Below are positions 8,795 to 64,000 of a DNA stretch of 64,000 nucleotides, piece after piece. Each line of letters begins with the position of its first letter. The first letter of the stretch is position 1. This DNA is from Mobilisporobacter sp. (GTDB lineage Bacteria > Bacillota > Clostridia > Lachnospirales > Lachnospiraceae): positions 4,690 to 68,689 of the forward strand of contig JAVBPB010000003.1 of assembly GCA_031549965.1 (NCBI GenBank), read 5' to 3'. The position numbers and the translations under genes were made by a program. A model generated the notes under the pieces. It searched no databases. It saw nothing but the letters and a program-made list of their open reading frames with translations, and was not told the DNA's origin.

Positions 8795-9862
8795 ATGGAT
8801 AAAATTAAAAAAGTAGAAGAACTACTAGAAAATGAAAGTGTAGATGTAATTCTAGTAGTTGATGGAAATAATATGAGATATTTAAGCGGATTTACTGGAG
8901 CTACAGGATATCTTTATATATCTAAAACTAAAAAAATTATTTTAACAGATTTTAGATATATTGTACAAGCCAACAAAGAAAGCATTGGATTTGAAGTAGT
9001 TGAAGTATTTAAAGGAAAATACATTGAAGCAATTAACGATTTATTAAGTAGTGAAGATAATAAGATAGTTGGTTTTGAAGATTATGTACTTAATTATAAT
9101 GAGTACATGGAATTTGAAAATCAAGGCATAATGACAAAACTTATGCCACTTGGGGAAAAGCTTAACAATCTAAGAAGCATAAAAACTGAAGATGAACTAT
9201 CAAATATAAGTAAAGCTGTAGATATTGGAGATTTAGCCTTTACTAAAATTTTAGACATAATAAAGCCAGGAATGACAGAATTAGAAATCGCAATGGAACT
9301 GGAATATATTATGAAAAAAAATGGAGCAGAAAAGTTAAGTTTCGAATCAATTATTGCATCTGGAATAAATGCTTCAATGCCTCATGCGACTCCAAGCAAT
9401 AAAAAAATAGAACTAGGGGATTTTTTGACTTTAGATTTTGGATGTGTATATAATGGTTATTGTTCAGATATGACAAGAACTGTAGTAATAGGAAAAGCCA
9501 CCCAAACCCAAAAGCATATTTACTATGTTGTCTTAGAAGCTCAAAAAAGAGCACTGGAAGGGTTAAAAGCAGGAGTGAAAGGTTGTGATGTAGACAAGAT
9601 AGCAAGAGACTATATTAATGAATCAGGATATGAAGGCTATTTTGGACATGGGCTTGGTCATAGTGTAGGGCTTTATATACATGAAAATCCAAGATTATCT
9701 CAAACAGACCAAACAGTCATACAAGCTAATATGACCGAAACAGTAGAACCGGGTATTTATATTCCAAAATTTGGAGGAGTTAGAATAGAAGATCTGGTAG
9801 TAGTTAAGGAAGATGGTTATATTAACTTTACCCATTCAGACAAAAACTTAATTGAATTATAA
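8795..9862 (+). CDS. M24 family Xaa-Pro aminopeptidase (YqhT/PepP-like)
   Basis: Creatinase-like N-domain plus M24 metal ligands (DFG...D, HGLGHSVGLYIHE, EPGIY, RIED). Sits in the conserved position between aroQ and efp. Confidence 0.85.
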   Translation: MDKIKKVEELLENESVDVILVVDGNNMRYLSGFTGATGYLYISKTKKIILTDFRYIVQANKESIGFEVVEVFKGKYIEAINDLLSSEDNKIVGFEDYVLNYNEYMEFENQGIMTKLMPLGEKLNNLRSIKTEDELSNISKAVDIGDLAFTKILDIIKPGMTELEIAMELEYIMKKNGAEKLSFESIIASGINASMPHATPSNKKIELGDFLTLDFGCVYNGYCSDMTRTVVIGKATQTQKHIYYVVLEAQKRALEGLKAGVKGCDVDKIARDYINESGYEGYFGHGLGHSVGLYIHENPRLSQTDQTVIQANMTETVEPGIYIPKFGGVRIEDLVVVKEDGYINFTHSDKNLIEL

Positions 9863-44330: not shown

Positions 44331-44434
44331 AATCCTTATAAAAAGTAAAACCCTAAAAAGAAGTATACTAATTTATAATTTTTGTGCTATACTATTTATA
44401 TTATGAATAATTTTTAGATAGGAGTTTGATCTTT

Positions 44435-46573
44435 ATGGATAGAGAAAGTATGGGACAAAAAAAGAAAATAGTTTATGATGTAATATATAGTAATGAATAT
44501 GAGCCTTTAAAGTTTAAAGAATTATCAATGTTATTGAGGGTTCCAAAAGAAGAAAAAGATGATCTGCGAATTGTATTGGAAGAACTTATATTAGAAGGAA
44601 AAATAGTTTTAAAACCAAATGGCAGATATGTAAAAGCAGATGGCAATATAGTAGTTGGAGTTTTTGAAGGAACACAAAGAGGTTTTGGATTTGTGACTGT
44701 TGAAGGTTTGGAAGAAGATATATTCATATCTGAAAGTGATGTTAAGGGTGCAATGCATAAAGACATAGTTCAGGTTAGAATCAGCACAAAGCAAACCGGC
44801 AAAAGAAAAGAAGGAGAAATAATTCAAGTTCTTGAAAGATCAACTACTCAGGTTGTAGGAACCTATGAAAAGAGTAAAAATTTTGGTTTTGTTATATGTG
44901 ATAATCAAAAGTTTGGAAAAGATATATTTATACCAAAAGGAGTGGATAAGGGCGCAGTTACAGGTCATAAGGTAGTTGTAAAAATTACTGATTTTGGTTC
45001 AAAAGATAAGAAGCCAGAGGGTAAAATTGTAGAAATAATAGGTCATATAAATGATCCGGGGACTGATATTATGTCCATAATAAAAGCATTTAATTTGCCT
45101 GTAGAATTTCCAAAACCTGTGCTAAGACAATTAGATAATATCCCTGATACTGTTGACGGTAAAGATTTTTCTGGAAGGCTTGATCTTAGACATTTGCAAA
45201 CAGTTACAATTGATGGTGAAGATGCAAAAGATTTAGATGATGCAATAACCATTTCAAAAGAAGGAGATATTTATAAATTAGGTGTTCATATAGCCGATGT
45301 AACAAATTATGTAACGGAAGACTCCCCACTTGATGAAGAAGCATTAAAAAGAGGTACCAGTGTTTACTTAGTAGATAGGGTTATTCCTATGTTGCCTCAT
45401 AAATTATCTAATGGAATATGTTCTTTAAATGCAGGTGAAGACAGACTTTCTTTAAGCTGTATAATGGATATAGACAAAAAAGGAGTTGTAGTGGGTCATA
45501 AATTAGCCGAAACAATAATAAACGTTGACCGAAGAATGACCTACACAAGTGTTAAAAAGATTTTAGAAGATCATGATGAAGAAGAATGCAAAGAATATAA
45601 AGAATTTGCTCCAATGTTTGAATTAATGCTTGAGTTGGCAACAATATTAAAAGAAAAAAGAAAACAGCGTGGTGCTATAGATTTTGATTTTCCAGAAAGC
45701 AAAATAATTCTTGACAAAAAGGGTCATCCAATAGAAATAAAACCATATGAAAGAAATAAGGCAACAAAGATTATAGAAGATTTTATGCTAATTGCCAATG
45801 AAACCGTTGCCGAAGATATGTTTTGGCAGGAACTGCCTTTTGTATATAGAACCCATGATACCCCAGATCCTGAAAAAATAGAAAAACTTTCAATGTTCAT
45901 TAATAATTTCGGATACACAATGAGAACAGGAAATGACGATATACACCCTAAAGAATTACAAAAGCTTTTATTTAAAATTGAGGATACTCCTGAAGAAGCA
46001 CTTATAAGCAGATTAACACTTAGATCTATGAAACAGGCAAGATACAAACACATTTGTGAAGGTCACTTTGGACTTTCAACCAAATATTATTGCCATTTTA
46101 CTTCACCAATAAGACGTTATCCGGATTTACAAATCCATAGAATAATTAAGGAAAACCTAAGAGGCGGATTAAATGAAAAAAGAGTTAAACACTATGAAAA
46201 AGTAGTTCCTGATGTTTCACTTAAGTCTAGTACCACTGAAAGAAGGGCTGAGGAATCAGAGAGAGAAGTGGTAAAACTTAAAAAGGTTGAATTTATGGAA
46301 GATTACATTGGGAAAGTATTTGAAGGTGTAATATCTTCTGTAACTAATTGGGGTATGTATGTGGAGCTTCCAAATACTGTAGAAGGAATGATACATGTTA
46401 CCAGCTTAAAAGATGATTATTATTTCTTTGACGAAGAACATTACATGTTAGTTGGTGAACACACTCATAAACAATATAAGTTAGGTGAAAAAATTAAGAT
46501 TGTAGTTATAAAAACTGATAAGATTACAAGAACAATAGATTTTGAATTGGCAGAAGAAGAAACTGAGGATTAA
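44435..46573 (+). CDS. rnr: Ribonuclease R
   Basis: Cold-shock/OB N-terminal domains, RNB catalytic domain ([13 protein letters not shown]), C-terminal S1 domain. ATG at 44435 is 10 nt after GGAG. Confidence 0.93.
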
Positions 46574-50073: not shown

Positions 50074-50394
50074 CTTATCACCTCACTTGCATATTAAATA
50101 TATTATAATTAAACATACATCGCCTGTCAAGGTATATTTAATTGTAATGTATATTAAATTGTAAAAAAGCTCATTTTAGTCTTTCTAACAAAGTAAAACA
50201 AGGCATTTACACTTCCAAAAGAATATCGAGTCATAATATCAAAACTTCCTCATATATGTAACCAAATTGTCTAATATGTATACAATAAATTAAAGCAAGT
50301 ATTTATCTTATTGGTAAAAAATTACAACTACTTTTGTACTACTTGCTTTTATATGTAAGATGGAAAGGAAATGTCTCGAGTGAGGAGAAATTAT

Positions 50395-51597
50395 ATGAAT
50401 TCACAAGAAATATGTGACAGTAATAGCTACAATTCTCAAGAATGCAATAGATGTTGCTATAGAGGACCTAAGGGAGACAAAGGCGAAAAAGGAGATCAAG
50501 GTCTACAAGGCTGTCCAGGTTCCCAAGGTTTACCCGGTCCAAAAGGAGATAAAGGAGATCCCGGAGAACGAGGTTATCAAGGAATTCCCGGTCCACAGGG
50601 TTCAAAGGGAGATTCTGGATGCAGAGGCCCCCAAGGTGAACGTGGCCCAAGAGGTCCACAAGGCTTTCAAGGCCCAGAAGGTCCAAGAGGATGCAAAGGT
50701 GAAATGGGTCCCCAAGGTTGCCAAGGTGCAAGAGGTCCAAAGGGTGAACAAGGACCGCCAGGCCCAAAAGGAGAACCAGGAGTGCAGGGAATCCCCGGAA
50801 AAGCAGGTTGCCCTGGACCCCAAGGTCCTCAAGGATGTCATGGTACTCAAGGTCCAAAAGGAGAACAAGGACCCCCAGGTCCAAAAGGAGAAACAGGAGA
50901 TTGTGGTCCATCAGGTCCTCAGGGAATACAAGGACCTCAAGGTATAAAAGGAGAAAAAGGTTGCCCAGGTCCAAAAGGAGAACCGGGAGATATGGGAGAA
51001 CAAGGCCCAAAAGGAAATCAAGGACCTCCAGGTCCAAAAGGAGATCCAGGTTTAAGAGGTCCAAAAGGAGATAAAGGAGAATGTGGACAGCCAGGTCCAA
51101 GGGGATGTAAAGGTCCAAGAGGTCCAAAAGGTCCACAGGGAGAAAAGGGTGAAAGAGGAGAAGCAAAAATTATGGCTTTTGGCTCTCTTTATCAGCCTTG
51201 TATGTGCGAAGAAAGATACAAAAATATCGAATTTATGGAAACTGGGCCTTGCTATGGAGTGAGAGTGGATACGCAAGATAGTAGTTTTACAATATGCGAA
51301 GAAGGGACATATAGTATTAACTTTTCTTTAACTCTCATTCTTGAAAGGTGTAAAGCAGTAAATAAAGCCTTTGGTTTATTTATTAATGAAAATTTAATTG
51401 AAAATTCCATTATAGAACAGATGTTAGTGCCTATTCAAAGTTGTAAATGTAGATATTATGCAATTGCAACTACAGGAAAATCAATACAAATGTTTTTGTA
51501 TCATGGTGACACTTTAACATTAAGATTTTTAGATGAAAGAGAAGAAGATGGAATTATGTATAGTCATGCAGCATTTAATATTTTGCAGCTGATGTAA
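50395..51597 (+). CDS. Collagen-like protein 1: Cys-rich N-terminus, 78 Gly-X-Y triplets (10 Cys inside the helix), C1q/BclA-like C-terminal domain
   Basis: ATG at 50395 is 7 nt after GAGGAG. I counted the triplets by hand (nt 50464-51165). The 143-aa C-terminus shows a jelly-roll-like pattern (...[14 protein letters not shown]...GDTLTLRF...). Confidence 0.85.
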
Positions 51598-51650
51598 CTA
51601 AGCAGAAAAGGCTGTTGTAAACAGTTAATTTATTGAAAGGGTTGAAAGTT

Positions 51651-53243
51651 ATGGCAAGAAATGATCAAAATGAACATCTTGATTACAGAAATAACGATAA
51701 AAAATGTTATTGTAATGACTTTATAGATGAAATTTATAAAAAGGAATGCTGGGAAGAGGAGGATGAACAACATAAATGTAAGGACTGTAATATTGATGAA
51801 TGTATAGGGCCAGTAGGACCAAAAGGAGATACTGGAGCAAAAGGTAAACAAGGTCCTACTGGAAAAAAAGGTCCAAGAGGTTTAAAGGGAGAAACAGGAG
51901 ATAGGGGAGAACCAGGTTGCCCTGGACCACAAGGACCACAAGGACCAAAGGGTGCTACCGGATTAAAAGGGCCAAAAGGTGATGTAGGGGTAGCGGGTCC
52001 AAGAGGAATAAGAGGAATATTAGGAGCACAAGGACCAAAAGGAACTCCAGGTTTAGAAGGTCCAAGGGGCCCAATGGGAATTGCAGGACCAAAAGGTCCA
52101 AAGGGAGATATAGGATCACAAGGCCCTCAAGGAGAAACAGGTCCACAAGGTGATAAAGGTGATATAGGAATAAGAGGTCAAAAAGGTGAAATGGGATGTA
52201 TAGGAGAAACTGGAGATAAAGGAGAAAGAGGATTAAGAGGTCCGACAGGAGAAAGAGGTTGTTTAGGTCCAAAAGGTTCAGAGGGAATGAAAGGCCCTAC
52301 AGGTGATAAAGGTCCAAAAGGCCCAAAGGGTGATAAAGGTGAAGTAGGACCAGACGGTCCAAAAGGTCCAAAAGGAGATACAGGATCTCAAGGCCCAAAA
52401 GGTGATAAAGGAGATATAGGTCCTCAAGGAGAACAAGGTGATAGAGGAGACAGAGGAATACAAGGTGACCAAGGTGATAGAGGAGTAGAAGGCATTCAAG
52501 GAGAAAAGGGAGATATAGGACCTCAAGGTGAACAAGGAGATGTAGGACCAAGAGGTAATACAGGACCAAAAGGAGATATGGGAGCACAAGGCTATCAAGG
52601 AGAAGCAGGAGATATTGGTTTAGATGGAGAAAGAGGAGAACCGGGAGAAGATGGTATTATGGGTCCACAAGGTCAAAAAGGGGATACAGGACCAGAAGGA
52701 CCGGCAGGAGATAGGGGACTGGATGGAATTGATGGAGTAGATGGAGAAACGGGAGAAATAGGTGAAAAAGGAGACAAAGGTCTTAAAGGAAGAGATGGAG
52801 TAGTAATTCCTGTATCAATTTATAATGGAAAATTAGATGCACCTATTTCACCACCATATGATACATTAACTAAATTAAGCATACATGAAACTTTGGCTGG
52901 TGAGTTTACAATAATTGATGAGAATACAATAAGTGTAATAAAGGCGGGAGTATATTATTTTGAAACATCTGCAACTACAACATTTGTTACAGAGGGAAGT
53001 AATTATAATATCTGTACATTTACCATGAAACTTAACAATAATCTTGTTCAAGAAAGTATAATTAAATCTGTATTTAGATTGGCTGAAGTTACAGATGATT
53101 TGGAATTAAGTTATAATTATACAAAGATGTATCAAGTAAGTCTTTCAGAGGGTGATACAATCTATTTTGATTATATTTTAAATACAGGAAACCAACGTGA
53201 CATTTTGGATTTTAATGTGAGTATTTATAAAATTTCCATGTAA
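51651..53243 (+). CDS. Collagen-like protein 2: Cys-rich N-terminus, 111 Gly-X-Y triplets, C1q/BclA-like C-terminal domain
   Basis: Uninterrupted GXY from GPV (nt 51807) to GVV (nt 52805). C-terminus ...[15 protein letters not shown]...EGDTIYFDY.... Confidence 0.85.
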
Positions 53244-53268
53244 ATACACGATGAAAGGATGATCTTGA

Positions 53269-54825
53269 ATGAAAAGAAATAGAAATGAAAATGAACACGA
53301 TTATGATGATTATTGTTTGGAAGATTTGGAATGTGAACAAAAAATATGTAGGGATAAGGATATTGAAATTGGAGAAAGAGGACCAAAAGGACCAAAAGGT
53401 TATAAGGGCCCACGTGGAGATATAGGGTGTGTAGGTTTACAAGGAGAAGTTGGCTTTAAAGGTGAATGGGGATTACAAGGTGAGAAGGGACCACAAGGTC
53501 CAAGAGGTTTTGAAGGTGTTGAAGGAGATCAAGGTCAGCAAGGTGACAGGGGAGAAAAAGGTCCACAAGGTCCAATTGGACCAATGGGATATCAAGGCCC
53601 AAAAGGTGAAAAAGGAGATCAAGGTCCGGAAGGAGCACAAGGCCCACAAGGTTTGCAAGGCCCACAAGGCTCAAAAGGAGACAGAGGCCCACAGGGAATT
53701 ATAGGTTGCACTGGACCAAAGGGGCTTAGAGGAGATGATGGCCCAAAAGGACCAAAAGGAGATCCAGGTCTGCAAGGATGTAAAGGACCAAAAGGAGATC
53801 CAGGACCACAAGGTTTACAAGGTCCAACAGGTTATGCAGGCCCACAGGGATTAGAAGGTCCAAGAGGAGCACAAGGACCTAAGGGCGATCCGGGCGATCC
53901 GGGTGAACGTGGAGAACAAGGTGTAATGGGTTCTCAAGGAGATAAAGGTAACACAGGGCCACAAGGTCCAGATGGTATAACCGGAGAAATGGGACCACAA
54001 GGTGAGCAAGGTGAAAAAGGTCCAAAAGGGCTTGAAGGGTTAGCAGGAGAAATGGGACCACAAGGCATTCAAGGGCCAAAAGGAGACATAGGTCCGGATG
54101 GAGTAGAAGGAGACCCGGGTCCTCAGGGATATCAGGGAATAAAAGGAGATATAGGACCGGATGGTTTACAAGGACTTCAAGGAATGCAAGGGAGAAAAGG
54201 AGATAGAGGTTCAGATGGTGCAAATGGCCCTCAAGGTCCAAAGGGCGATGAAGGAGATCAAGGCCCAAAAGGACCAAACGGGTTAGCTGGTTTAGATGGC
54301 AAAGATGGAGCAAAAGGTGCAAAAGGATTGACAGGTGAAGATGGAGAGTCAGGAGACCGAGGAGACGATGCATTAGTAACAGGAAGTTATTTTGGAATGA
54401 AAAGTACAGTTCCTCACACCGGTGCAGTAGTTGTCGGAGCTAAACTTAATTTGGGTTCGGGTCAAATGAGTGGATTTATTCCTATGTCAACAGATGGAAA
54501 TACTACAGCCATACAATGTAATGGAAGCGGGCTATTTATGGTAACAGTTTCAGCTAGTATTCAATTATTGGTTGATGGTAGTTCTGGATACTATACTTGC
54601 AATACTGAAATAGGTATTTATGTTGGAGATACGCTTGTAGATAAATTAAAATGTGGTTTGGGATTTGTTGAAACACCTGATAGAAGAATCATAGGACATT
54701 ATGCAAATCAAAAAACTCTTATTCTTTCTATTGCCCCTAATAATGAATTAAATTTAAGATTTGTATCAGCTGATAAAGGTACTGCTTGCGGTAATTTGGT
54801 ATTTTCTGCTATACAATTGATATGA
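53269..54825 (+). CDS. Collagen-like protein 3: Cys-containing N-terminus, 111 Gly-X-Y triplets, C1q/BclA-like C-terminal domain
   Basis: Uninterrupted GXY from GER (nt 53371) to GDD (nt 54369). 151-aa C-terminus ...[13 protein letters not shown]...NNELNLRFV.... Confidence 0.85.
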
Positions 54826-54841
54826 TACGAGGTGAACAAGT

Positions 54842-56344
54842 ATGAAACATGAATATGAATATTGTAAAAAAGATAATTTTAAGTGTGGAATCTGTCCAGG
54901 TCCAACAGGACCCAAGGGTGATGTAGGGGATATGGGAGATATGGGGCCTGAGGGTCCACAAGGTCCACAAGGTCCAAAGGGTCCAAGTGGAGAAAAAGGT
55001 GCTAGAGGAGAAGATGGTATAGTTGGACCAAGAGGGAAAAAAGGAAATACAGGTTTGCAAGGACCAAAGGGAGAAACAGGTGAGGTTGGTCCACAAGGTC
55101 CACAAGGTCCCGAAGGCCCACAAGGTGTTACAGGAGATAAAGGAGATCAAGGCGTTAGAGGGCCACAAGGAGCACAAGGAGCACAAGGAGCAAAAGGAAT
55201 AGTTGGAGATATAGGTTCAAAAGGTTACATGGGTCCAAAAGGACCAAAAGGAGAAAAGGGTGGACCAGGAATTCAAGGAGATAAGGGTGCTACAGGACCA
55301 AAAGGAGAAAAGGGAGATCAGGGTTGTATTGGAATAAAAGGTGAAATTGGATGTCAAGGTCCAATTGGAATAAAAGGTCCAGCTGGTCCAAAAGGTCCGA
55401 CAGGAGATGAGGGAGATAAGGGACCAAAAGGAGAAGCAGGACCGGCCGGAGTGCAAGGACCAAAAGGAGAAACCGGAGAAATGGGTCCAAAGGGAGAAAA
55501 AGGAACTACTGGTGCCCCAGGACTAAAAGGATTAAAAGGAGAAACAGGAGATAAAGGAGACAAAGGAAGAACAGGAGAAATGGGACCACAAGGCTTAAGA
55601 GGAGAAACAGGAGATCAAGGAGTGAAGGGACCAGCCGGCCCAAGCGGTCATGAAGGTTCAAAGGGAGAAAGAGGTGACCGTGGAGCAGATGGTCCTAAGG
55701 GCATACAAGGTCTTCAAGGAGAAAAGGGAGAGCAAGGAGCAGCAGGACTTTCAGGGCCACAAGGTCCAAATGGAGAACCAGGCTCTATAGGACAAAAAGG
55801 AGAAAATGGAGAACCAGGTAAAAACGGAAATCCTGGCCCGACAGGTGACCAAGGAGATAAAGGTGCACAAGGGATAATCGGAGATTCGGGAGACGATGCA
55901 TATATGATAAATTCATATGGTTCAATGTATGGTGAAAATGAATCAAGAATGTCATACGCATCAATTGTTCTTTACGATAAGGAATCTGTTCCTGCATCAA
56001 ATGTAAATTGTCAGCCATTAATTGGAAAGATAACAATTAATAAAGCTGGAGTATATGCAGTTAGTTTTTCTACAACACTTAAGTTAACCAATCTTCCTGG
56101 TGCAATTGCGGCATATGTAAGATTAGAATTATATCTTAACGGAGTAACCACAGGTGATATCTTTGTGGATCACGGGCACGACAATGTTCAGCCGGATACT
56201 GATTTTATAACTGAATTTACTACTGGTAAATCTGTTATAAGAAACCTTAAGGAAGGTGATGTACTTGAAATTGCTTGTGTATCTTTAGCAGGTGAAGCTT
56301 TTTATAGTAATTCAAGTTTTAATATTGTTGGTGTTAATATTTAA
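54842..56344 (+). CDS. Collagen-like protein 4: Cys-containing N-terminus, 111 Gly-X-Y triplets, C1q/BclA-like C-terminal domain
   Basis: Uninterrupted GXY from GPT (nt 54899) to GDD (nt 55897). 148-aa C-terminus ...ITINKAGVYAVSFST...EGDVLEIAC.... Confidence 0.85.
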   Translation: MKHEYEYCKKDNFKCGICPGPTGPKGDVGDMGDMGPEGPQGPQGPKGPSGEKGARGEDGIVGPRGKKGNTGLQGPKGETGEVGPQGPQGPEGPQGVTGDKGDQGVRGPQGAQGAQGAKGIVGDIGSKGYMGPKGPKGEKGGPGIQGDKGATGPKGEKGDQGCIGIKGEIGCQGPIGIKGPAGPKGPTGDEGDKGPKGEAGPAGVQGPKGETGEMGPKGEKGTTGAPGLKGLKGETGDKGDKGRTGEMGPQGLRGETGDQGVKGPAGPSGHEGSKGERGDRGADGPKGIQGLQGEKGEQGAAGLSGPQGPNGEPGSIGQKGENGEPGKNGNPGPTGDQGDKGAQGIIGDSGDDAYMINSYGSMYGENESRMSYASIVLYDKESVPASNVNCQPLIGKITINKAGVYAVSFSTTLKLTNLPGAIAAYVRLELYLNGVTTGDIFVDHGHDNVQPDTDFITEFTTGKSVIRNLKEGDVLEIACVSLAGEAFYSNSSFNIVGVNI

Positions 56345-56519: not shown

Positions 56520-56863
56520 GGGGTTGTACTGGTTTCGACGGGGGTATTGAAATTATGGAAGCCATTCGTGGTCTGGGTCCACGTAAAAACCTGGAATTAA
56601 ATATAAACGCAGACGAAAATTTAGCGTACGCTGCCTAGTGGCAGCTGTCGACTCTAAGCAACTTGCGGCTTAGATGTTCGGCATCAACTTAGCAAGGCAC
56701 TTTGTTTTCAAAGCTTTGAGGAAATAAAAGAATTTATGAAGCTACTAAAGTCTTAAGCCTGTCATTGGGCGTAAGATAGAGGGAATGTTAAATTAATGAC
56801 TGTAATGGGAGATGCTACAATGGATAGACTTTCGGACAGGGGTTCGATTCCCCTCAGCTCCAC
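56520..56863 (+). ncRNA. ssrA: tmRNA (SsrA)
   Basis: 5' GGGGUUGUACUGGUUUCGACGGGGG. The 3' T-arm GGUUCGAUUCCCC is followed by the acceptor strand CAGCUCC pairing with GGGGUUG (G3:U pair) and discriminator A. Tag ORF GCA GAC GAA AAT TTA GCG TAC GCT GCC TAG = ADENLAYAA* (56609-56638). The CCA end is not fully encoded. Confidence 0.93.
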
Positions 56864-56880
56864 TAAAAAGGTAGAAATAA

Positions 56881-56976: not shown

Positions 56977-57192
56977 TTATTTATCCTCATTATTAGAACT
57001 AAATTTCGGATAAAATTTATCCATTTTATTAGCAGCTTGTTTTTCTTTACTCTTTATTAAGTGAGAATAAACATTAAGAGTGACATTCCTATCACTGTGA
57101 CCTAATCTGCTGCTTAAAGTTACAATATCTGTTTTTTCTGAAATAAGTAGACTAGCATTTGTATGACGCAGATAATGTGATGAAATTCGACA
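56977..57192 (-). pseudogene. C-terminal fragment (about 70 aa) of a tyrosine recombinase/integrase
   Basis: RISSHYLRHTNASLLISEKTDIVTLSSRLGHSDRNVTLNVYSHL... covers box II (HxLRH), LGH and the catalytic Tyr. The N-terminal about 380 aa are absent and the upstream frame has stops. Confidence 0.8.
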
Positions 57193-57515
57193 AAATAACA
57201 ACATAAACGATAAGGAACGCTGTCGAAGAACGGAAAGTAATAAGAATCAGTAATAGAAAGGCTACGATAAAAGTATTTTTGTGGTCTTTTTATTCTTAAA
57301 AAGCAAGTTAGAGTTGCATCTGAAAATCTATTATAGATTCTATAATCCTTTGTAAATAGATAAATTTTGGGTTAGTAATGTACGTTTGAAAAGCCAAGAA
57401 AGAGATTTACTTTTGATTGCAAATGAGCGATAATAAAAGCAAAGTAAATTAAGATATTCTAACAAAAAAATGCAATATTTGATTGCTTTGAAAGAATATC
57501 TCGGAGGTGATAATT

Positions 57516-60500
57516 ATGTTTGATGTCAAATGGGACACATTTAGTATAAAAAACAAAAATAAAGAAGATGCTTTTGAAACAATGTGTAGGCATCTGTTTT
57601 TTAGAAAGTTTAGTATTGATGGATACGGGTTTCAATCGAACTATAATCAAACAGGATTAGAAACACAGCCAATTAAATTCAATAATGAATGGTATGGGTT
57701 TCAATGTAAGTTTTCAAGCAGTAACAACAATGATGCCTTATACAAAGAGGTTTACACATCGCTAAATAAGGCCTACAAATGTTTTCCTAATTCAATTAAT
57801 CATATTTATATTTATACAAATGCAGATATTCAACCTATTTGCACTGATGACGAAATTAAAAATGCAAAAAAGATTAGCAATAGGATGAATATACAAATTG
57901 AAGCAAAAAAATATAATGTAGAACTGCATTGGATAAAAACAGAAAATTTCAACTCCATTTTGAATGAGCATTCCAATCTTGATATATATAAACTATATTT
58001 TTCTTCGCAGAATGAGTTAGCCTTTCTTGATGACTCAATTTCATTGCAGGATAGAACATTTTTAAATTCTAGTACTTTCTTGGATCTACACATAAATGGT
58101 AAAAGTTTTAATGGAACTATTGATGAAATTTTTAAAAATAAGTTGAGCCTAATAATAGGTAATGCCGGAACGGGTAAAACAGAACTTCTAAAAAAATTGT
58201 ATGTTTACTCATCTGATAGGTTTTTAGATACATATAAAAATGTATCTGTTGACATAGGGGTGTTACCCATTTTTTTGAGACTGAGAGAATGTGTACATGG
58301 TGATGTTGAAGGATTACTCAAACAAAGATTAATTGATTATAAAATCAATATTATCGATTGCACGTATGAACTTATATACTTTTTTGATGGGCTTGATGAA
58401 ATCTCTAATGCAGATATAGATAAAGTAATTTCATTTGTTAACTACTTATCGCAAAAAAGGAATACAAGATCTGTTCTTATATCATCTCGAAAAAGTACAC
58501 CTAATCTTCAGTATTTACATACCTTGATTGAGGTGGCACACTACGAGATTGATAAATTAAATATTGATTTCATAGATTTATATTTTTCTAATCGCAACGA
58601 TGGAACAAAATTGGATTTCTACCAATCAATAAAATCAGAAGTTGAATATTTATTATCTGAAATAGATGATATATTCTCGGTCAATCTACTTTGGCAGACA
58701 ATAGAATCTTTAGATGCTAATACTACAAAAATTGAATTAATTCAAAACTATGTTAATAAATTAATGTATACATCACATAGTATAAAATTATTGCCATTAC
58801 CAGAAATAAAGAGTGATAAAATTGAAGATATTTGTAGTGAGGTTGCTTTTTTCATGCAAGAAACGAATAGACTAAATATTGATTTAAGTGAATTACAAAA
58901 TATTTCTTTCGAACTATTCAAAAAGCTTTCATACACGGATATAGATAAAGTTATATTGTGTATTTCTGGAATGTTCTTTGATATTACTAATAAAAAAAGT
59001 CAACGTATATACTCATTTAAGCATCGAAGATATCAAGAGTATTTTCTATATAAAAAAATATCAAGCCTCTTTTTTGAAAATCCATTTATAATAAGAGAAT
59101 TGGGATTGCTGCCAAACAAGGATTTTGTATTAAGAATATTCCTAAAGCAATCTTTAAAAGATGCGCTAAGTAAAGGGGAGATGATTAAAGTCCTATCGCT
59201 TAGATTTTTTGAGGCATATCTAGGCTCAGATTATTGGTATGACTACAAAGATTCATTAATTGGTGTTAGGAGTGATTATGGTGTTGGCGATGAATCTTAT
59301 TTAAGTTCAAATGAAATATTAATCACACTTGCTATTAGGCCACTAGAAGAACTATGTTTGCTGCTAGAAAATGAAGCCTTTTCATTAAAGAATTTTCTTT
59401 CAGAAGACAATTATTGGAATTTTGTAAAAGAATACTACCGCTTTAATAAATGTGATGTTAGACAAACCTTGTTGAAGTATTACAAATTAGATAGTGATGT
59501 CATAAAAAAATCCATAAATAAAGCACCATGTGAATATTGGTACTGTGTTTGTCAATTAGACAAATATGATCCAAAAGATATTTTAGAAGACACAATAAAA
59601 AAGCTGCAATTTGATAAATTAAATTTTGATTTTATAGCCTTTTCGAAGGAAAATTTATCAATTGCGTCAGGTTATTTCAAAATGCTTTTGGATATAAATT
59701 ATAATCTGATTCCTGACATTATTGATATGATTAGTGTTGAACTTTTGGAAATCTTTAGCTTTGATATTTTACGAAATGGTAATATCCGCTATTTATTTGA
59801 TGAGAGTCCATTGAATAAATCTATACATGAAAAACTCATTCTTAGGATAGATACCAACCCCGATGTTGATTACCAAGTCAATACTTTAGCCTTATATGCA
59901 ATTTTATCCAAGAAAATAATAAGACAAGAACTCCTTGAGGCTAGGTTTTCAAAAGTTAATAAAAATCATCATATAACATGGGAGCAAAACATTGAATTAA
60001 ACTGCCATATTGTGAATCTATTGGGAGTAGATCAAAATTTGTACTCTATTGATTGCCTTCTTGGTTGTGAGATAAGAAAAATCGTTTTGGAACTTTACCC
60101 CCAAAACAAAGATAAAGTTCTTGATTCAATTATCGACGCAGTAAAAAAATACAATTTACTATATGAAAATTGGTTTTTGGTAGACAATTCAAAATTAATA
60201 GGGGCGATTGTTGCCCAACTAAGTTTTAATGACAATTTATTAAAAGAATTTGTAAGCAAACTATATAATTATCAAAGTGTTATATCGTTGACTATTGTTC
60301 TTGAATACATCTTGGTTAATAATCAAGAATTGTTTCTACTTTTAGTTAATGAGAATTTGCTAAAGAAATTAAATATAGAGGCAATAAAGCAACTCGGCTA
60401 TTATGAATATAACTCAGATACTGACTTTATATTTTCTACAATGTTCTCGAAGATTAATAAAGCCGAGAGTTACAAATGTTTAATCAGAGGAATAAACAAT

Positions 60501-61616
60501 AGTATTTATCGACCTGCGTTTAGAAAGGAAGATGTGGTCGATTCAGTTTTGCCAGAATGTTTATTACTTTCTAGTCAAAATCATTGGTACTCTGAAATAG
60601 AACTAGAATCCATGTCGTATAGAATTTATAGCTTGCTTAAGATTATGACTGAAACTACTGATAAAGGGTCATGTATGGCATATTTTAAGTATGTTTTAGA
60701 GGCTTGTTTACCCCAATCTAGTATTTTGGATGATTTGTATGATGAAGCACCTTATAATCCGCTCCCCAAAAATAATATAAAAGAAAATACCCGAAATTGC
60801 GATTTTAAACAAATAGATAAGGAAAGCATTACTGATTATTATGAATGTAAAATTTCGGAAGCGCCTTACTATAATTTAGGCTTTTGGAAAGAACTAATTA
60901 GTATAGAGAAAGCTTTCGATGATGATCTTCATTCTCTATTTTCTGTTCTTCAAGAAAACCACTACCCAGAACCATACGGCGGAAAAATAAATGAGTATTT
61001 TCCAATTATAACGGCGGCATTGCTATCTGATACTCACTTGTCTGACATAAGTACTAGATTTATTTTAAAACAAGGAGGGCGTTCAGGATTAATTAACATG
61101 ATAAAAAGCTTTTCTTTAATGGGCGATTCTGAAAATGCCAGTCTTTATATAAATCAAATTTTCAAATTGACAGAAGCACTGGTATTCCAAAACGAAACAA
61201 TATATAATTCTCAACAATATAAGTATTCTATATCTTCTGAAACATTGGACTTAGTATTTAACAGTAAAAAAGACGACTGGATTACACATGAATCAGAGCA
61301 GAAAAAAACTCATAAAAATAACCCTCGCGTCAAAATAATTAAAGATGATATAGGTGAACTTGAGGGGTTTCATGAAAAATGGGCAATCGAACATATAAAT
61401 CCTGAGGCTTATAAAGTAAATATAGGCATTTATCATGATGACAATTTATTAATGACTTTGATACTAATATACGTTGATGGATATAGAGCATTGCTTCCGA
61501 TTCCTATGAATGGAAGTAGTGTTATTCAGAGAAAAATGTATAATTTTGCGTTGTTGTTTAATGATGAAAAAACTTTAAACTCATATATTAGAGCATCTAA
61601 ATTGCTAGTAGATTAA
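57516..61616 (+). CDS. STAND/NACHT-type P-loop NTPase with N-terminal Mrr-like PD-(D/E)xK nuclease domain and about 1070-aa C-terminal helical region (NLR-like; candidate antiphage sensor)
   Basis: ATG at 57516 is 8 nt after GGAGG. N-terminus EDAFETMCRHLF...QTGLETQP...WYGFQCKF...IYIYTNADI (Mrr-like D/E...QxK). Walker A GNAGTGKT (58158-58181). NACHT-type Walker B LIYFFDGLDE (58371-58400). No repeats recognised in the remainder. Confidence 0.75.
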   Translation: MFDVKWDTFSIKNKNKEDAFETMCRHLFFRKFSIDGYGFQSNYNQTGLETQPIKFNNEWYGFQCKFSSSNNNDALYKEVYTSLNKAYKCFPNSINHIYIYTNADIQPICTDDEIKNAKKISNRMNIQIEAKKYNVELHWIKTENFNSILNEHSNLDIYKLYFSSQNELAFLDDSISLQDRTFLNSSTFLDLHINGKSFNGTIDEIFKNKLSLIIGNAGTGKTELLKKLYVYSSDRFLDTYKNVSVDIGVLPIFLRLRECVHGDVEGLLKQRLIDYKINIIDCTYELIYFFDGLDEISNADIDKVISFVNYLSQKRNTRSVLISSRKSTPNLQYLHTLIEVAHYEIDKLNIDFIDLYFSNRNDGTKLDFYQSIKSEVEYLLSEIDDIFSVNLLWQTIESLDANTTKIELIQNYVNKLMYTSHSIKLLPLPEIKSDKIEDICSEVAFFMQETNRLNIDLSELQNISFELFKKLSYTDIDKVILCISGMFFDITNKKSQRIYSFKHRRYQEYFLYKKISSLFFENPFIIRELGLLPNKDFVLRIFLKQSLKDALSKGEMIKVLSLRFFEAYLGSDYWYDYKDSLIGVRSDYGVGDESYLSSNEILITLAIRPLEELCLLLENEAFSLKNFLSEDNYWNFVKEYYRFNKCDVRQTLLKYYKLDSDVIKKSINKAPCEYWYCVCQLDKYDPKDILEDTIKKLQFDKLNFDFIAFSKENLSIASGYFKMLLDINYNLIPDIIDMISVELLEIFSFDILRNGNIRYLFDESPLNKSIHEKLILRIDTNPDVDYQVNTLALYAILSKKIIRQELLEARFSKVNKNHHITWEQNIELNCHIVNLLGVDQNLYSIDCLLGCEIRKIVLELYPQNKDKVLDSIIDAVKKYNLLYENWFLVDNSKLIGAIVAQLSFNDNLLKEFVSKLYNYQSVISLTIVLEYILVNNQELFLLLVNENLLKKLNIEAIKQLGYYEYNSDTDFIFSTMFSKINKAESYKCLIRGINNSIYRPAFRKEDVVDSVLPECLLLSSQNHWYSEIELESMSYRIYSLLKIMTETTDKGSCMAYFKYVLEACLPQSSILDDLYDEAPYNPLPKNNIKENTRNCDFKQIDKESITDYYECKISEAPYYNLGFWKELISIEKAFDDDLHSLFSVLQENHYPEPYGGKINEYFPIITAALLSDTHLSDISTRFILKQGGRSGLINMIKSFSLMGDSENASLYINQIFKLTEALVFQNETIYNSQQYKYSISSETLDLVFNSKKDDWITHESEQKKTHKNNPRVKIIKDDIGELEGFHEKWAIEHINPEAYKVNIGIYHDDNLLMTLILIYVDGYRALLPIPMNGSSVIQRKMYNFALLFNDEKTLNSYIRASKLLVD

Positions 61617-61695
61617 ATGTTCCTTCAGATATAGAAGATTATTTAAGGGCTATCAATAAATTTTGCGGAAATAATAATCCTTTTTAGAATTATAG

Positions 61696-61736
61696 GTCTA
61701 TCAGAAGCCAAAGGTGACTTTTGATAGACTTGTTTA
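61696..61736 (+). terminator. Terminator-like hairpin after the STAND gene
   Basis: GTCTATCAGAAG / CTTTTGATAGAC (one G:U pair), 10-nt loop, followed by TTGTTTAATAATT. Confidence 0.55.
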
Positions 61737-61785
61737 ATAATTAATAAAAAGTTGAATAATTTTTTAGTGTGTGCTTGACATACGG

Positions 61786-62997
61786 GTGTCTTAATCCATG
61801 AAAAGTTAATTTTGGTAAATTATTTTGTTTTATAAAATCAGTAAACCATTGATAGGGTCTTGATGGTGACATAGGTTCACCTGATTCATGCCTAAAAACA
61901 TAAATACTTTCTATAAAAGAATCTCCTAATTTTTCTTTACATTCATCAAGATACAGTTTATATTCTTTTAAAATATTAATAACAGTTGGTGATAAGGTAA
62001 TGGTTCTAAGCCCATTTTCTGTTTTAGGCTCATTAACAATAATACTACCATACTCCTTAGCAACACGCTGACGTTGTTGTGTTACTTGTAATGTCCCATT
62101 TTCTAAATTAATGTGATTGTTTTCTAGACCTGCAATTTCACTAATTCGTAGACCAGAGTCTATAGTAAGGTAAATAATTGTTTTGTATTTTTTTGGTGCA
62201 GTTTCAAGAGCTTTAAACAAATTATTTAATTGAATTTCATCATAGTACATTGGCTTTGTCTTTTTTACTTTTGGGACTCTAACACGTTCAGCAGGATTGC
62301 TTAAAATTAAATTATTTCTTTTAGCTTCTGATAGAATTGTTGAAATTATATCATGATGATGTTTAATTGTTTTGTCAGAAAGTTTTTCTTGTCTATGCTC
62401 TAAAATAAATGATTTGCTTAATGATAATTCAAAGTGCTCACATATTTTTGTAGCTGTTTTTAAATCTGTTCGTTCCCCATTTCTAATTCTTATAAATGTT
62501 TTAGATGTTATACCAATTTCAGAATTGGATTTTGATGTTTTAACACCTTTTAATAAATTAATAACAATTTCGTTTGGTTTGTAGTAATTATCTAATCTCG
62601 CTCCTTCCTCAGAAAGATAATTGTAAAAGCCCTCTAAATGATGTGGCTGAATTTGAGATAGTTTTAAATGTCCAATTTCTGGAATGATTCTTTCTTTTAA
62701 TCTCACTTCATAATTGGGAAGAGTTGATTTTGCAAGTTGCTTTTTAGCATAATCATTGAACCACTTAAGAGCAAATTCTCTGAAAGTTATATTTTCACCA
62801 TCTAAGTATGTGCCTTTTTGTACTTCTTCTTCAAAAATTATTTTTTGACGTTCCAATTCTTTTTGAAGCTGTTTTTGAGTCAATTTGATATCAATTTTAA
62901 TTGTTTTCTTCTTATATTTTTTACGTCCTTTTTCATCATAACCACAACTTACAGTTAGACGGTAAGTATCATTACAACGTTTTTCAATACTTGCCAT
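61786..62997 (-). pseudogene. Tyrosine integrase lacking its C-terminal catalytic end (truncated right after box II HGLRH)
   Basis: Arm-binding-type N-terminus (MASIEKRCNDTYRLTVSCGYDEKGRKKYKK...), core-binding and catalytic Arg region (...DSGLRISEI...). Homology ends at ...LTFHGLRH, followed by 14 unrelated codons (PYVKHTLKNYSTFY) and a stop at 61741. No LGH...Y is present. Confidence 0.75.
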
Positions 62998-63122: not shown

Positions 63123-64000
63123 CTAACTCTTTTTTTCATACATTTTTAGCCCTAACGCATCCATCAGATTTTCGGTTTGTTCACAGGGCATAGATACGGA
63201 ATATCCTTCTTTCAGCTTACGCTTCTGTTGATAATAGTGTACATATTGCTTTTTCTTTCCAAGTGTTTCAAGCATATCATTTATTCCGATCTGTATTCCT
63301 TGAGCGGCTAATTCTTTTTTCAATAGATAACATAAGCGAACTGCCATTACGCAACAGAATAGATGTACCCGAATTTTCTGATCTGTCCAACAAAAAAGTG
63401 GACGAACTGTCAGATAATCTGCATCCTTCATTTGCCGGAAGGTGTGTTCAAGCCTCCAGGCACTACGATATGCTTTGATAATCTCTTCACTTTCCCATTC
63501 CGACTGGTCTGTAAAAAGCACTGTCTTTCCCAACTCATGTTCTTTGAGCCAGTCCAATTCCTCTTTGTTGTATCTCCATTCCAGTACTGGAATACCATCT
63601 TCTCCGTCCCTTACTTCATAATGAAATAGAGTTTTTATATATTCAATAGACAAAATTTTGTCCATATTTTTCTTAATACTTTCTACGGTAGGCTTCTTTC
63701 CGCCTTTGACCTGACTACTACGGCGTTTTTCTAACCGTTCTTCTAAATCTCTGATCTTTTCTATGCACTGAGTTTCGTTTTTGACGATTCCCTGCAACTG
63801 CCCATCTAAGAGAGCAGGATTTCTTGTTGAAATAATCGTATGTTCTTTCCCATACACTTCTCCTTTGGTACGATAGTACGTCATTCCAGACAACTCTTTT
63901 GAACGAGCTTCTTGATACTGAGAGTCGGGTACTTCAAAGAGTTCTTTACACTGATTTTTCTTTAAGCCACCTACATAACAGAACGTATTTTCTGTTTCTG
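63123..64000 (-). mobile_element. IS4-superfamily (IS1634-like) transposase, C-terminal part; the ORF runs off the window end
   Basis: The minus-strand frame is open from 64000 to the stop at 63123. ...TVLFTDQSEWESEEIIKAYRSAWRLEHTFRQMKDADYLTVRPLFCWTDQKIRVHLFCCVMA... shows the YREK-type region of DDE transposases. Visibly more GC-rich than its surroundings. Confidence 0.7.

Follow-up and report, generated by a model that had tools for sequence, protein, structure and literature searches.

The NLR-like gene and its product

The stretch of DNA analysed here (hereafter, the window) comprises 64,000 nucleotides of a Mobilisporobacter sp. assembly (GCA_031549965.1, contig JAVBPB010000003.1, positions 4,690–68,689). 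The gene of interest lies close to ssrA and encodes an NLR-like protein of 1366 amino acids (aa), for which a first reading of the sequence (the original prediction) had proposed a role as a single-gene antiphage sensor. We consider it likely that the gene is indeed an antiphage STAND with a nuclease effector, of the Avs/bacterial-NACHT kind. The gene, the parts of its product and its signals are as follows:

57504–57510, + strand: ribosome-binding site GGAGGTG, 5 nt before ATG 57516 (read from the sequence)
57516–61616, + strand: NLR-like gene, 1366 aa, intact, full length relative to ~70 homologue clusters
57516–57965, + strand: predicted Avs4-type Mrr-like PD-(D/E)xK nuclease domain, aa 1–150 (Avs4 profiles, 8DGF_A match, model secondary structure)
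57966–58100, + strand: predicted helical linker, aa 151–195 (within the Avs4 profile match; model)
58101–59120, + strand: NACHT-type STAND NTPase module, aa 196–535 (nucleotide-binding domain NBD, then helical domain HD1, then winged-helix domain WHD)
58158–58181, + strand: Walker A of the NTPase module
58371–58400, + strand: Walker B DGLDE of the NTPase module
58482–58496, + strand: sensor-1 SSR of the NTPase module
59016–59045, + strand: WHD with H503, motif FKHRRYQEYF
59133–61265, + strand: alpha-solenoid, putative sensor, aa 540–1250 (AlphaFold 2 model, all helical)
61266–61613, + strand: terminal alpha/beta domain, aa 1251–1366 (profile search; Pfam and PADLOC on the matches)
61695–61730, no strand assigned: hairpin between the convergent NLR-like and integrase genes (RNA fold -30 kcal/mol, z = -2.7)

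The open reading frame ends at 61616 and could begin at either GTG 57507 or ATG 57516. The ATG is the likely start, since it is preceded at a 5-nt spacing by the ribosome-binding site, and since the ~70 full-length homologue clusters, which share both the length and the architecture of the window protein, start at the equivalent residue. The open reading frame is intact, and the ribosome-binding site with which the gene had been credited is confirmed, as GGAGG. So are the motifs quoted at the time: EDAFETMCRHLF (aa 17–28), GLE (aa 47–49), FQCKF (aa 62–66), IYIYTNADI (aa 97–105), Walker A GNAGTGKT (aa 215–222) and Walker B LIYFFDGLDE (aa 286–295) are all present, with one correction: E49 and Q63 are 14 residues apart, rather than 15.

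Alignment of 26 full-length relatives, which are only 25–54% identical, shows F20, E49, Q63, C64 and K65 to be invariant in the nuclease domain, and G215–K221, D291, G292, D294 and E295 in the NTPase; when 12 more-distant relatives are added, the majority of invariant columns are still invariant. Such invariance across dissimilar proteins indicates that the motifs are not chance strings. Mean pairwise identity within the family is 0.45 for the nuclease domain, 0.41 for the NBD, 0.31–0.32 for the solenoid and 0.41 for the terminal domain.

Two further elements flank the gene. Directly 5' of the ribosome-binding site lies an imperfect palindrome (positions 57452–57501; 25+25 nt, 76% complementary, no spacer), which could be an operator or a hairpin of the 5' untranslated region. 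Downstream, the hairpin at 61695–61730 is followed by TTGTTTAAT, and its predicted fold makes it a probable bidirectional terminator. The gene had been credited with a terminator of its own: a strong hairpin is there, but a consensus scan for intrinsic terminators downstream of the gene called none, this hairpin included.

An Avs4-type nuclease domain at the N-terminus

Profile and structure comparisons support the assignment of the N-terminal domain to the PD-(D/E)xK nucleases of the Avs4 (Mrr-like) type. Two Avs4 models match the window protein: NCBIfam NF041815 (AVAST type 4 nuclease Avs4; aa 6–231, 2.3e-29) and PADLOC PDLC02169 (aa 1–231, 5.2e-26). When a profile of the family is searched against the PDB, the sole significant sequence is EcAvs4 (8DGF_A, residues 1–240, 3e-23); a phmmer search of the PDB with the whole window protein gives no match, and only the family profile reached 8DGF. 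The alignment of profile and 8DGF_A sets GFQCKY over EcAvs4 GWQSKF and GLEiePv over GIETNPI, with Q63-C-K65 aligned to the Q-S-K of EcAvs4. The putative catalytic residues are E21, E49 and Q63-x-K65; of these, E49, Q63 and K65 do not vary in any of 61 sequences.

An AlphaFold model of aa 1–560 (pLDDT 88.9, pTM 0.76) contains, in the nuclease region, a helix at 16–31, strands at ~53–55 and 58–65, a helix at 72–89 and a strand at 96–101. In this model the domain has an alpha-beta-beta-beta-alpha-beta PD-(D/E)xK core, with E49 and Q63-x-K65 placed on strands. The Mrr-type nuclease of the original prediction is thus borne out, and can be sharpened to the Avs4 subtype.

A NACHT-type NTPase module

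The nuclease domain and linker are followed by an NTPase that appears NACHT-like on three grounds: its motifs, the Pfam matches of its homologues, and structural comparison. Firstly, G215–K221, D291, G292, D294, E295, R325 (of sensor-1) and H503 (of the WHD) are invariant across the same 61 sequences. NACHT modules are defined by a WHD histidine, here H503, and both NLRC4 and bNACHT25 are hyperactivated when it is mutated (10.1101/2022.07.19.500537). Secondly, Pfam NACHT (PF05729) matches 15 of the 26 homologues at E ≤ 0.01 (best 3.1e-7) and further homologues match NPHP3_N or nSTAND3; NCBI annotates several family members as 'NACHT domain-containing protein'. Thirdly, a Foldseek search with the aa 1–560 model places EcAvs4 at the top (1.7e-15, ~600 aligned columns) and also retrieves NLRC4 (4KXF; 2.4e-11, query TM-score (TMq) 0.48, root-mean-square deviation 5.2 over 404 columns) and, after it, NLRP3, NOD2 and NAIP5. 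The earlier NACHT call is upheld by the DGxDE form of Walker B, the SSR of sensor-1, H503, the NLR fold matches and the Pfam matches of the homologues.

A nuclease followed by a NACHT module and a helical C-terminal domain is also the layout of bNACHT25 and bNACHT32, single-gene REase-NACHT proteins of clade 6 whose REase is Mrr-like and which have been shown to defend (Kibby et al., 10.1101/2022.07.19.500537). The conserved WHD histidine of bNACHT25 corresponds to H503, and the protein becomes toxic, in a nuclease-dependent manner, upon mutation of its H443-equivalent (10.1101/2022.07.19.500537). It differs from the window protein in two respects: (i) it is ~750 aa long and ends in a short NCH1 (REase 2–178, NACHT 185–558, NCH1 575–747), while the C-terminus of the window protein spans ~830 aa, and (ii) its REase has no similarity to the Avs4-type domain that PADLOC, NCBIfam or Pfam scans detect. 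Accessions of the window family were not found in the available portion of the tables of Kibby et al. (10.1101/2022.07.19.500537).

A C-terminal solenoid that differs from the Avs4 sensor

The NACHT module, with its NBD, HD1 and WHD, extends to ~aa 535, and the uncharacterized C-terminus is therefore ~830 aa long, not ~1070 aa as first proposed. An AlphaFold 2 model of aa 540–1366, built with 48 homologues (pLDDT 88.0, pTM 0.78), shows ~710 residues of paired helices and then a compact alpha/beta domain of ~115 residues. No TPR, WD40 or LRR periodicity had been recognized in this region; that holds at the level of Pfam, which returns no significant match to the C-terminal region, but the model is a helical-repeat solenoid.

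Foldseek comparison of the C-terminal model with the PDB and BFVD finds nothing at E ≤ 0.001. The sub-significant list (E 0.03–0.3) consists of karyopherins, FANCI/D2, catenins and designed toroids. SeAvs3 (8DGC; E 0.039, TMq 0.36) appears amid these generic HEAT/ARM/karyopherin-like solenoids and was not accepted as a homologue, and EcAvs4 (8DGF) is absent from the top 50 matches. With no match at the threshold and EcAvs4 outside the top 50, the modelled solenoid is not the Avs4 sensor, and it matches no solved structure. It is also the least conserved part of the protein in the family alignment, a pattern expected of a ligand-facing surface or of a sensor engaged in an arms race.

These comparisons bear on a simpler explanation, namely that the window protein is a divergent Avs4 orthologue that senses the portal protein. 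Avs4 is an Mrr nuclease that recognizes the portal and assembles as a tetramer, its active sites being formed by dimers of the nuclease (10.64898/2026.08.25.746987; PMC12236752). The likeness is considerable: the nuclease and linker are homologous (2e-29 to 3e-23) and contain the same Q-x-K motif, both proteins have a STAND NTPase, the best profile and structure matches are to Avs4, and an effector-NTPase-sensor layout with a long helical C-terminus is encoded by a single gene in each case (1366 aa against ~1580 aa). Against orthology, the Avs4 models align to aa 1–231 only, and the NCBIfam Avs4 match covers profile positions 2–228 of 1579 at 101 bits, compared with an equivalog cutoff of 1500. 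Neither sequence nor structural similarity extends past ~aa 560 of the window protein, which has another solenoid (best E 0.03, to generic folds) plus an extra terminal alpha/beta domain outside the Avs4 match. The window NTPase, with its classic NACHT motifs, is nearly as similar to animal NLRs as to EcAvs4, and the hosts of the window family are Firmicutes, while those of Avs4 are Proteobacteria. Finally, different sensors can converge on the portal, as Avs11 does (Lee et al., PMC13581612), so the effector is no guide to the target. As only the effector matches and the C-terminal model differs, Avs4 orthology is largely refuted, and we regard it as very improbable. By sequence and model, the window protein is not Avs4 proper; it is best described as a NACHT chassis that carries an Avs4-type nuclease and a sensor specific to the family. 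A further candidate, Avs8/PD-lambda-4 (Mrr + P-loop), was rejected, as PADLOC returned no match to it.

The distribution of the C-terminus was examined with a profile of the C-termini of 11 family members only, searched against 1.84 billion representatives. The complete C-terminus occurs only in the ~1365-aa family (~15 representative clusters, plus fragments), while parts of the solenoid are also found in relatives of 1370–1440 aa. The original prediction held that the sensor may be new. In favour of this, there is no match in Pfam, the PDB or BFVD; the claim is nevertheless weaker than it sounds, as a 54%-identical homologue of the same architecture is already a seed in a published survey of defence STANDs. 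That survey (Lee, Koonin, Gao et al. 2026, PMC13581612) catalogues Avs7–Avs24, 589 clades and 684 sensor clusters; the homologue from D. hippei (WP_092333664.1) is its seed 336, with the NTPase at 193–391.

The nuclease-NTPase chassis (query aa 1 to ~630, 25–32% identity) is also found with other C-termini, at loci L014–L022 (proteins P0074–P0085) in Colwellia, Virgibacillus, Halalkalibacter, Chloracidobacterium, Saccharibacteria and Kaiserbacteria. One of these proteins, P0077, matches the Avs4 nuclease model better than the window protein does (4.5e-51). This distribution suggests sensor swapping on a conserved nuclease-NTPase chassis.

A portable terminal alpha/beta domain

The last part of the protein has a wider distribution. 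Positions 700–825 of the C-terminal profile match, on their own, ~100 of the best 150 representatives (E 1e-20 to 1e-34). Among these best 150, the domain stands alone in ~60 proteins of 104–150 aa and occurs, usually at the C-terminus, in ~40 proteins of 160–710 aa. Its motif can be written W..HPD..A...VDGYRALLPxP or, more loosely, W..HPD..A...VDGxRA.LPxP. The fusion partners identified are (i) TIR_2, (ii) SEFIR (PADLOC bSEFIR, 2e-70 to 2e-76), (iii) a CAP12/Pycsar-type TIR, (iv) DUF4062, (v) a PNP_UDP_1 nucleosidase (PADLOC PDC-M60C / PN-superfamily effector), and (vi) a Ser/Thr kinase with a PDC-S65-like C-terminal region.

The stand-alone proteins are all annotated as hypothetical and have no Pfam, NCBIfam, PHROG or PDB match. 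They do match the middle of the PADLOC candidate PDC-S50 (positions ~170–297, E 1e-5 to 1e-10); the window protein itself falls below that model. PDC-S50 and the bSEFIR/TIR single-gene candidates thus have a terminal domain of ~115–125 aa in common with the NLR-like protein, but are 130–460 aa long, lack the STAND NTPase and the solenoid, and carry NADase-type or other effectors in place of the nuclease. A lipoyl-domain match obtained by searching the terminal-domain profile against the PDB (0.0018) is spurious, with no stretch passing on its own.

The nearest NLR relatives with the same nuclease-NTPase chassis, P0082 (Clostridium sp. USBA 49) and P0075 (Colwellia), do not have the terminal domain (hhalign probability below 1% in both), which points to a specific acquisition by the window NLR family. 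On these profile matches, the domain appears to be a portable module common to many candidate defence proteins. That it is found again and again next to death effectors, with no further domain in the protein, suggests that it serves in sensing or gating.

The same observations raise the question of which part of the C-terminus detects infection. It may be the terminal domain, rather than the solenoid, that is the sensing or gating element, or the two may act jointly; the solenoid would then be mainly a scaffold or autoinhibitory arm, and the terminal domain a portable module that responds to a common infection cue (a phage protein, host factor or small molecule). Within the C-terminus, conservation is highest in this domain (0.41 against 0.31 for the solenoid), with an invariant W, VD and P (W1255, W1289, A1298, V1320, D1321 and P1328 in the 26-member alignment); it is the sole non-effector domain of the TIR_2, SEFIR, TIR, DUF4062, nucleosidase and kinase fusions listed above, it forms part of PDC-S50, and it is absent from the same-chassis relatives. 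In the solved Avs structures 8DGC and 8DGF, however, it is the helical-repeat domain that binds the phage protein (PMC13581612), and the terminal domain, which has no PDB, Pfam, NCBIfam or PHROG match, could equally be an oligomerization domain or an autoinhibitory cap. Stand-alone copies on small ColE1-like plasmids also fit a sensor role poorly. We judge a terminal-domain sensor to be unlikely and retain the solenoid as the putative sensor.

The broader idea that the terminal domain is an undescribed portable infection-sensing or gating module, plugged onto varied effectors and also encoded alone, including on small mobilizable plasmids, is a tentative one that strikes us as possible but doubtful. 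If it is true, and the domain recognizes one conserved cue, two sensors would be stacked in the NLRs of this family, and short, PDC-S50-like single-gene defence proteins would make up a new class defined by the domain. The terminal domain is, in any case, the more novel lead.

The plasmids in question are ColE1-like mobilizable plasmids of 4.85 kb from Enterobacter, Klebsiella, Serratia and Citrobacter, on which the domain is encoded alone, among few cargo genes (NZ_CP042491.1, positions 304–795, and 47 other plasmids; ~45% identical to protein P0127). A tblastn search with a stand-alone member found no copy in the 50,697 phage records of INPHARED.

Neighbourhoods of the homologues

The genomic context of the NLR-like gene was surveyed at eight other loci by scanning neighbours within 10 kb with PADLOC. 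Recognized defence genes are carried by six of the eight. These include type I restriction-modification, PDC-M62A/B and HD proteins (D. hippei); Gabija GajA (2e-205) and GajB (1e-210), 3.5 kb downstream (C. paraputrificum); PDC-S06 (8e-155) and RadC (P. sordellii); and a PifA-like KAP NTPase (3e-72 and 8e-75) with insertion sequence (IS) elements at two metagenomic Clostridia loci, one of which also has a dGTPase (4e-79). Another metagenome-assembled genome has a mad3/mad8-like ATPase (3e-74) and reverse-transcriptase fragments at its locus, and the C. perfringens locus holds a primase/PolA mobile element. The homologues are found mainly in Clostridia, Lachnospiraceae and Paenibacillus, and their distribution is patchy and linked to mobile elements. 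As had been anticipated, they do not lie mainly in conserved housekeeping contexts, and there is no partner gene: no neighbour is conserved across the eight loci, from which it follows that the NLR-like gene works alone.

At the two metagenomic Clostridia loci, the PifA-like KAP-family NTPase (~730–750 aa) is encoded on the same strand, directly 3' of the NLR-like gene (L083 14320–16566, L084 14126–16306). The two genes may form a pair that recurs within one sub-branch of the family; this arrangement is absent from the window.

The neighbourhoods, together with the state of the gene, also bear on whether it is an immune gene at all. It might instead be a STAND with a function outside defence, in regulation or as a housekeeping nuclease, or else inert cargo or a relic in decay. 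Non-defence clades are numerous among STANDs (PMC13581612), one homologue has a housekeeping neighbourhood, and the island around the window gene is clearly decaying, with split or truncated integrases and an IS insertion. The gene itself, however, remains open over 4.1 kb of AT-rich DNA with its catalytic motifs all conserved, it has ~70 full-length homologue clusters, its effector is a defence-type nuclease, and both the defence genes at six of the eight loci and the patchy, mobile distribution fit a defence gene better. We regard a non-immune gene as very improbable.

Weighing of the defence interpretation

The domains, the motifs and the homologue neighbourhoods support the inference of a defence NLR made in the original prediction, the antiphage activity itself being argued by analogy. 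A few findings weigh the other way. Pfam gives only sub-threshold P-loop matches on the window protein, including NACHT (PF05729) at 14 bits against a threshold of 26.7; 15 of the 26 homologues, as noted, do match it at E ≤ 0.01. Likewise, Pfam Mrr_cat (PF04471/PF13156) does not match the window protein at E ≤ 1; the nuclease relationship is visible only via the Avs4 models, through which the PD-(D/E)xK match is significant. The Paenibacillus homologue (L004) is a lone insertion in a housekeeping region, with nrd on one side and a flavin reductase on the other. In the catalytic motif, the K is preceded by Q, not D/E; EcAvs4 has this Q too and was reportedly found by Gao et al. in 2022 to be an active nuclease.

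The last of these findings concerns nomenclature. Some N-terminal NACHT-associated REase domains are named 'NA-iREase' by Kibby et al. (10.1101/2022.07.19.500537), whose Table S1 lists, in NACHT clade 15, 'NA-iREase2 + NACHT/nSTAND4' proteins with a REase-like domain of ~120 aa at the N-terminus, where the window protein has its nuclease domain. If the 'i' means inactive and NA-iREase is the Avs4-type domain, the effector could be non-catalytic; and if NA-iREase2 is the Avs4-type nuclease, two literatures would disagree on its catalysis.

On balance we favour the antiphage STAND, a real and probably functional sensor of the Avs/bNACHT type. By homology with EcAvs4, SeAvs3/7 and bNACHT proteins such as bNACHT25, we infer that the protein binds a trigger, oligomerizes, cleaves DNA and confers phage resistance, presumably following the activation logic of Avs4 (a trigger binds, a tetramer forms with ATP, and DNA is degraded). 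At rest, the NACHT module would be ADP-locked via H503 of the WHD and the nuclease held inactive. A trigger from the phage, most likely one of its conserved proteins, would bind the C-terminal region (solenoid and terminal alpha/beta domain) and release autoinhibition. The NACHT modules could then oligomerize in an ATP-dependent manner, probably as the tetramer known for Avs3, Avs4 and Avs7. Oligomerization would pair the N-terminal Avs4-type Mrr-like domains into active dimers, and these would degrade double-stranded DNA indiscriminately, aborting the infection and killing the infected cell.

As for the trigger, the catalogue of Lee et al. (PMC13581612) describes most sensors as TPR-like helical repeats that recognize folds of core phage proteins, a general finding that, by analogy, would apply to the window family too. 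All families with assigned triggers there are from Proteobacteria, and the available portion of the text reports no trigger or phenotype for the window family. Since the family is found mainly in Clostridia, Lachnospiraceae and Paenibacillus, a trigger would put phages of gut and soil Firmicutes on the map.

The kind of system is already known: its architecture is textbook, a close homologue is in the published catalogue, and specialists will not be surprised by it. The literature searched gives no trigger for this family of Firmicutes and no account of its terminal alpha/beta domain. The NLR-like sensors of bacteria (Avs, bNACHT) correspond to the NLRs of animals and plants, and any sensor type added to the list may bring a further rule by which cells recognize viruses. 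The family also illustrates modular evolution, in that the Avs4-type nuclease-NTPase chassis occurs with at least three C-termini (those of the window family, of the Colwellia/USBA-49 type and of Avs4), and its last domain is common to non-STAND defence candidates. The gene is, moreover, compact, self-contained and experimentally tractable.

The ssrA island

The NLR-like gene is cargo of a 9.7-kb island in ssrA, bounded by a 30-bp att repeat. The features of the island within the window, apart from the gene itself, are:

56520–56863, + strand: ssrA (tmRNA), integration target of the island (ARAGORN; tag ADENLAYAA)
56837–56866, + strand: attL, CAGGGGTTCGATTCCCCTCAGCTCCACTAA, one of two exact direct repeats of 30 bp, at the ssrA 3' end
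56977–57204, - strand: tyrosine-integrase C-terminal remnant, 75 aa, from ..SSHYLRHT.. to the end (Pfam Phage_integrase, profile positions 126–169 of 172)
61741–62997, - strand: tyrosine-integrase N-terminal part, 418 aa, truncated right after ..FHGLRH (Pfam Phage_integrase positions 5–137 of 172, plus SAM-like domains)
63123–64000, - strand: IS transposase, cut by the window end (569 aa in L001; DDE_Tnp_1, weak)

The far end of the island was located on L001, a 13.4-kb contig that is identical to the window and extends past its end. There, attL lies at 3–32 and a second exact 30-bp copy, attR, at 9722–9751 (~66556–66585 in window coordinates), giving a repeat spacing of ~9.7 kb; in a shuffle control, none of 200 shuffles gave two matches. 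Core genes resume past attR. Between the repeats the order is integrase C-remnant (-), NLR-like gene (+), 418-aa integrase (-), IS transposase (-) and small open reading frames; on L001 these last encode a PIN-like protein of 151 aa, a 72-aa product and a UPF0175-like fragment, with a possible toxin-antitoxin pair among them. An islet beside ssrA, and transcription of the NLR-like gene opposite to its flanking integrase remnants, had both been read correctly from the sequence: the tmRNA is confirmed, the repeat delimits the island, and both remnants are on the - strand.

The two integrase remnants are complementary, one ending after ..LTFHGLRH and the other starting ..ISSHYLRHT, and their concatenate aligns colinearly (1–462) with phage integrases. 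Both keep the HxLRH motif, encoded by different DNA. They are either one gene split by the NLR cassette or two integrases, each truncated at the same motif. No terminal direct or inverted repeats flank the 4.5-kb cassette (57205–61740), and no relative of the 418-aa integrase turned up in a genome scan.

Upstream of ssrA lie gpmI, rnr (RNase R, 44426–46570), smpB, a HisZ-like gene and a DUF4097 gene, followed by four consecutive collagen-like G-x-y repeat genes directly upstream of ssrA (50371–56344, + strand). The RNase R shares no more than 75% identity with any protein in a collection of 5.8 billion clusters, and the named genera closest to it are Mobilisporobacter, Anaeromicropila and Anaerocolumna, all pointing to a Lachnospiraceae host. 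The products of the collagen-like genes are 408–536 aa long, have globular C-termini and resemble BclA-type exosporium or surface proteins, and the G+C content over these genes is 0.41–0.49, compared with ~0.29.

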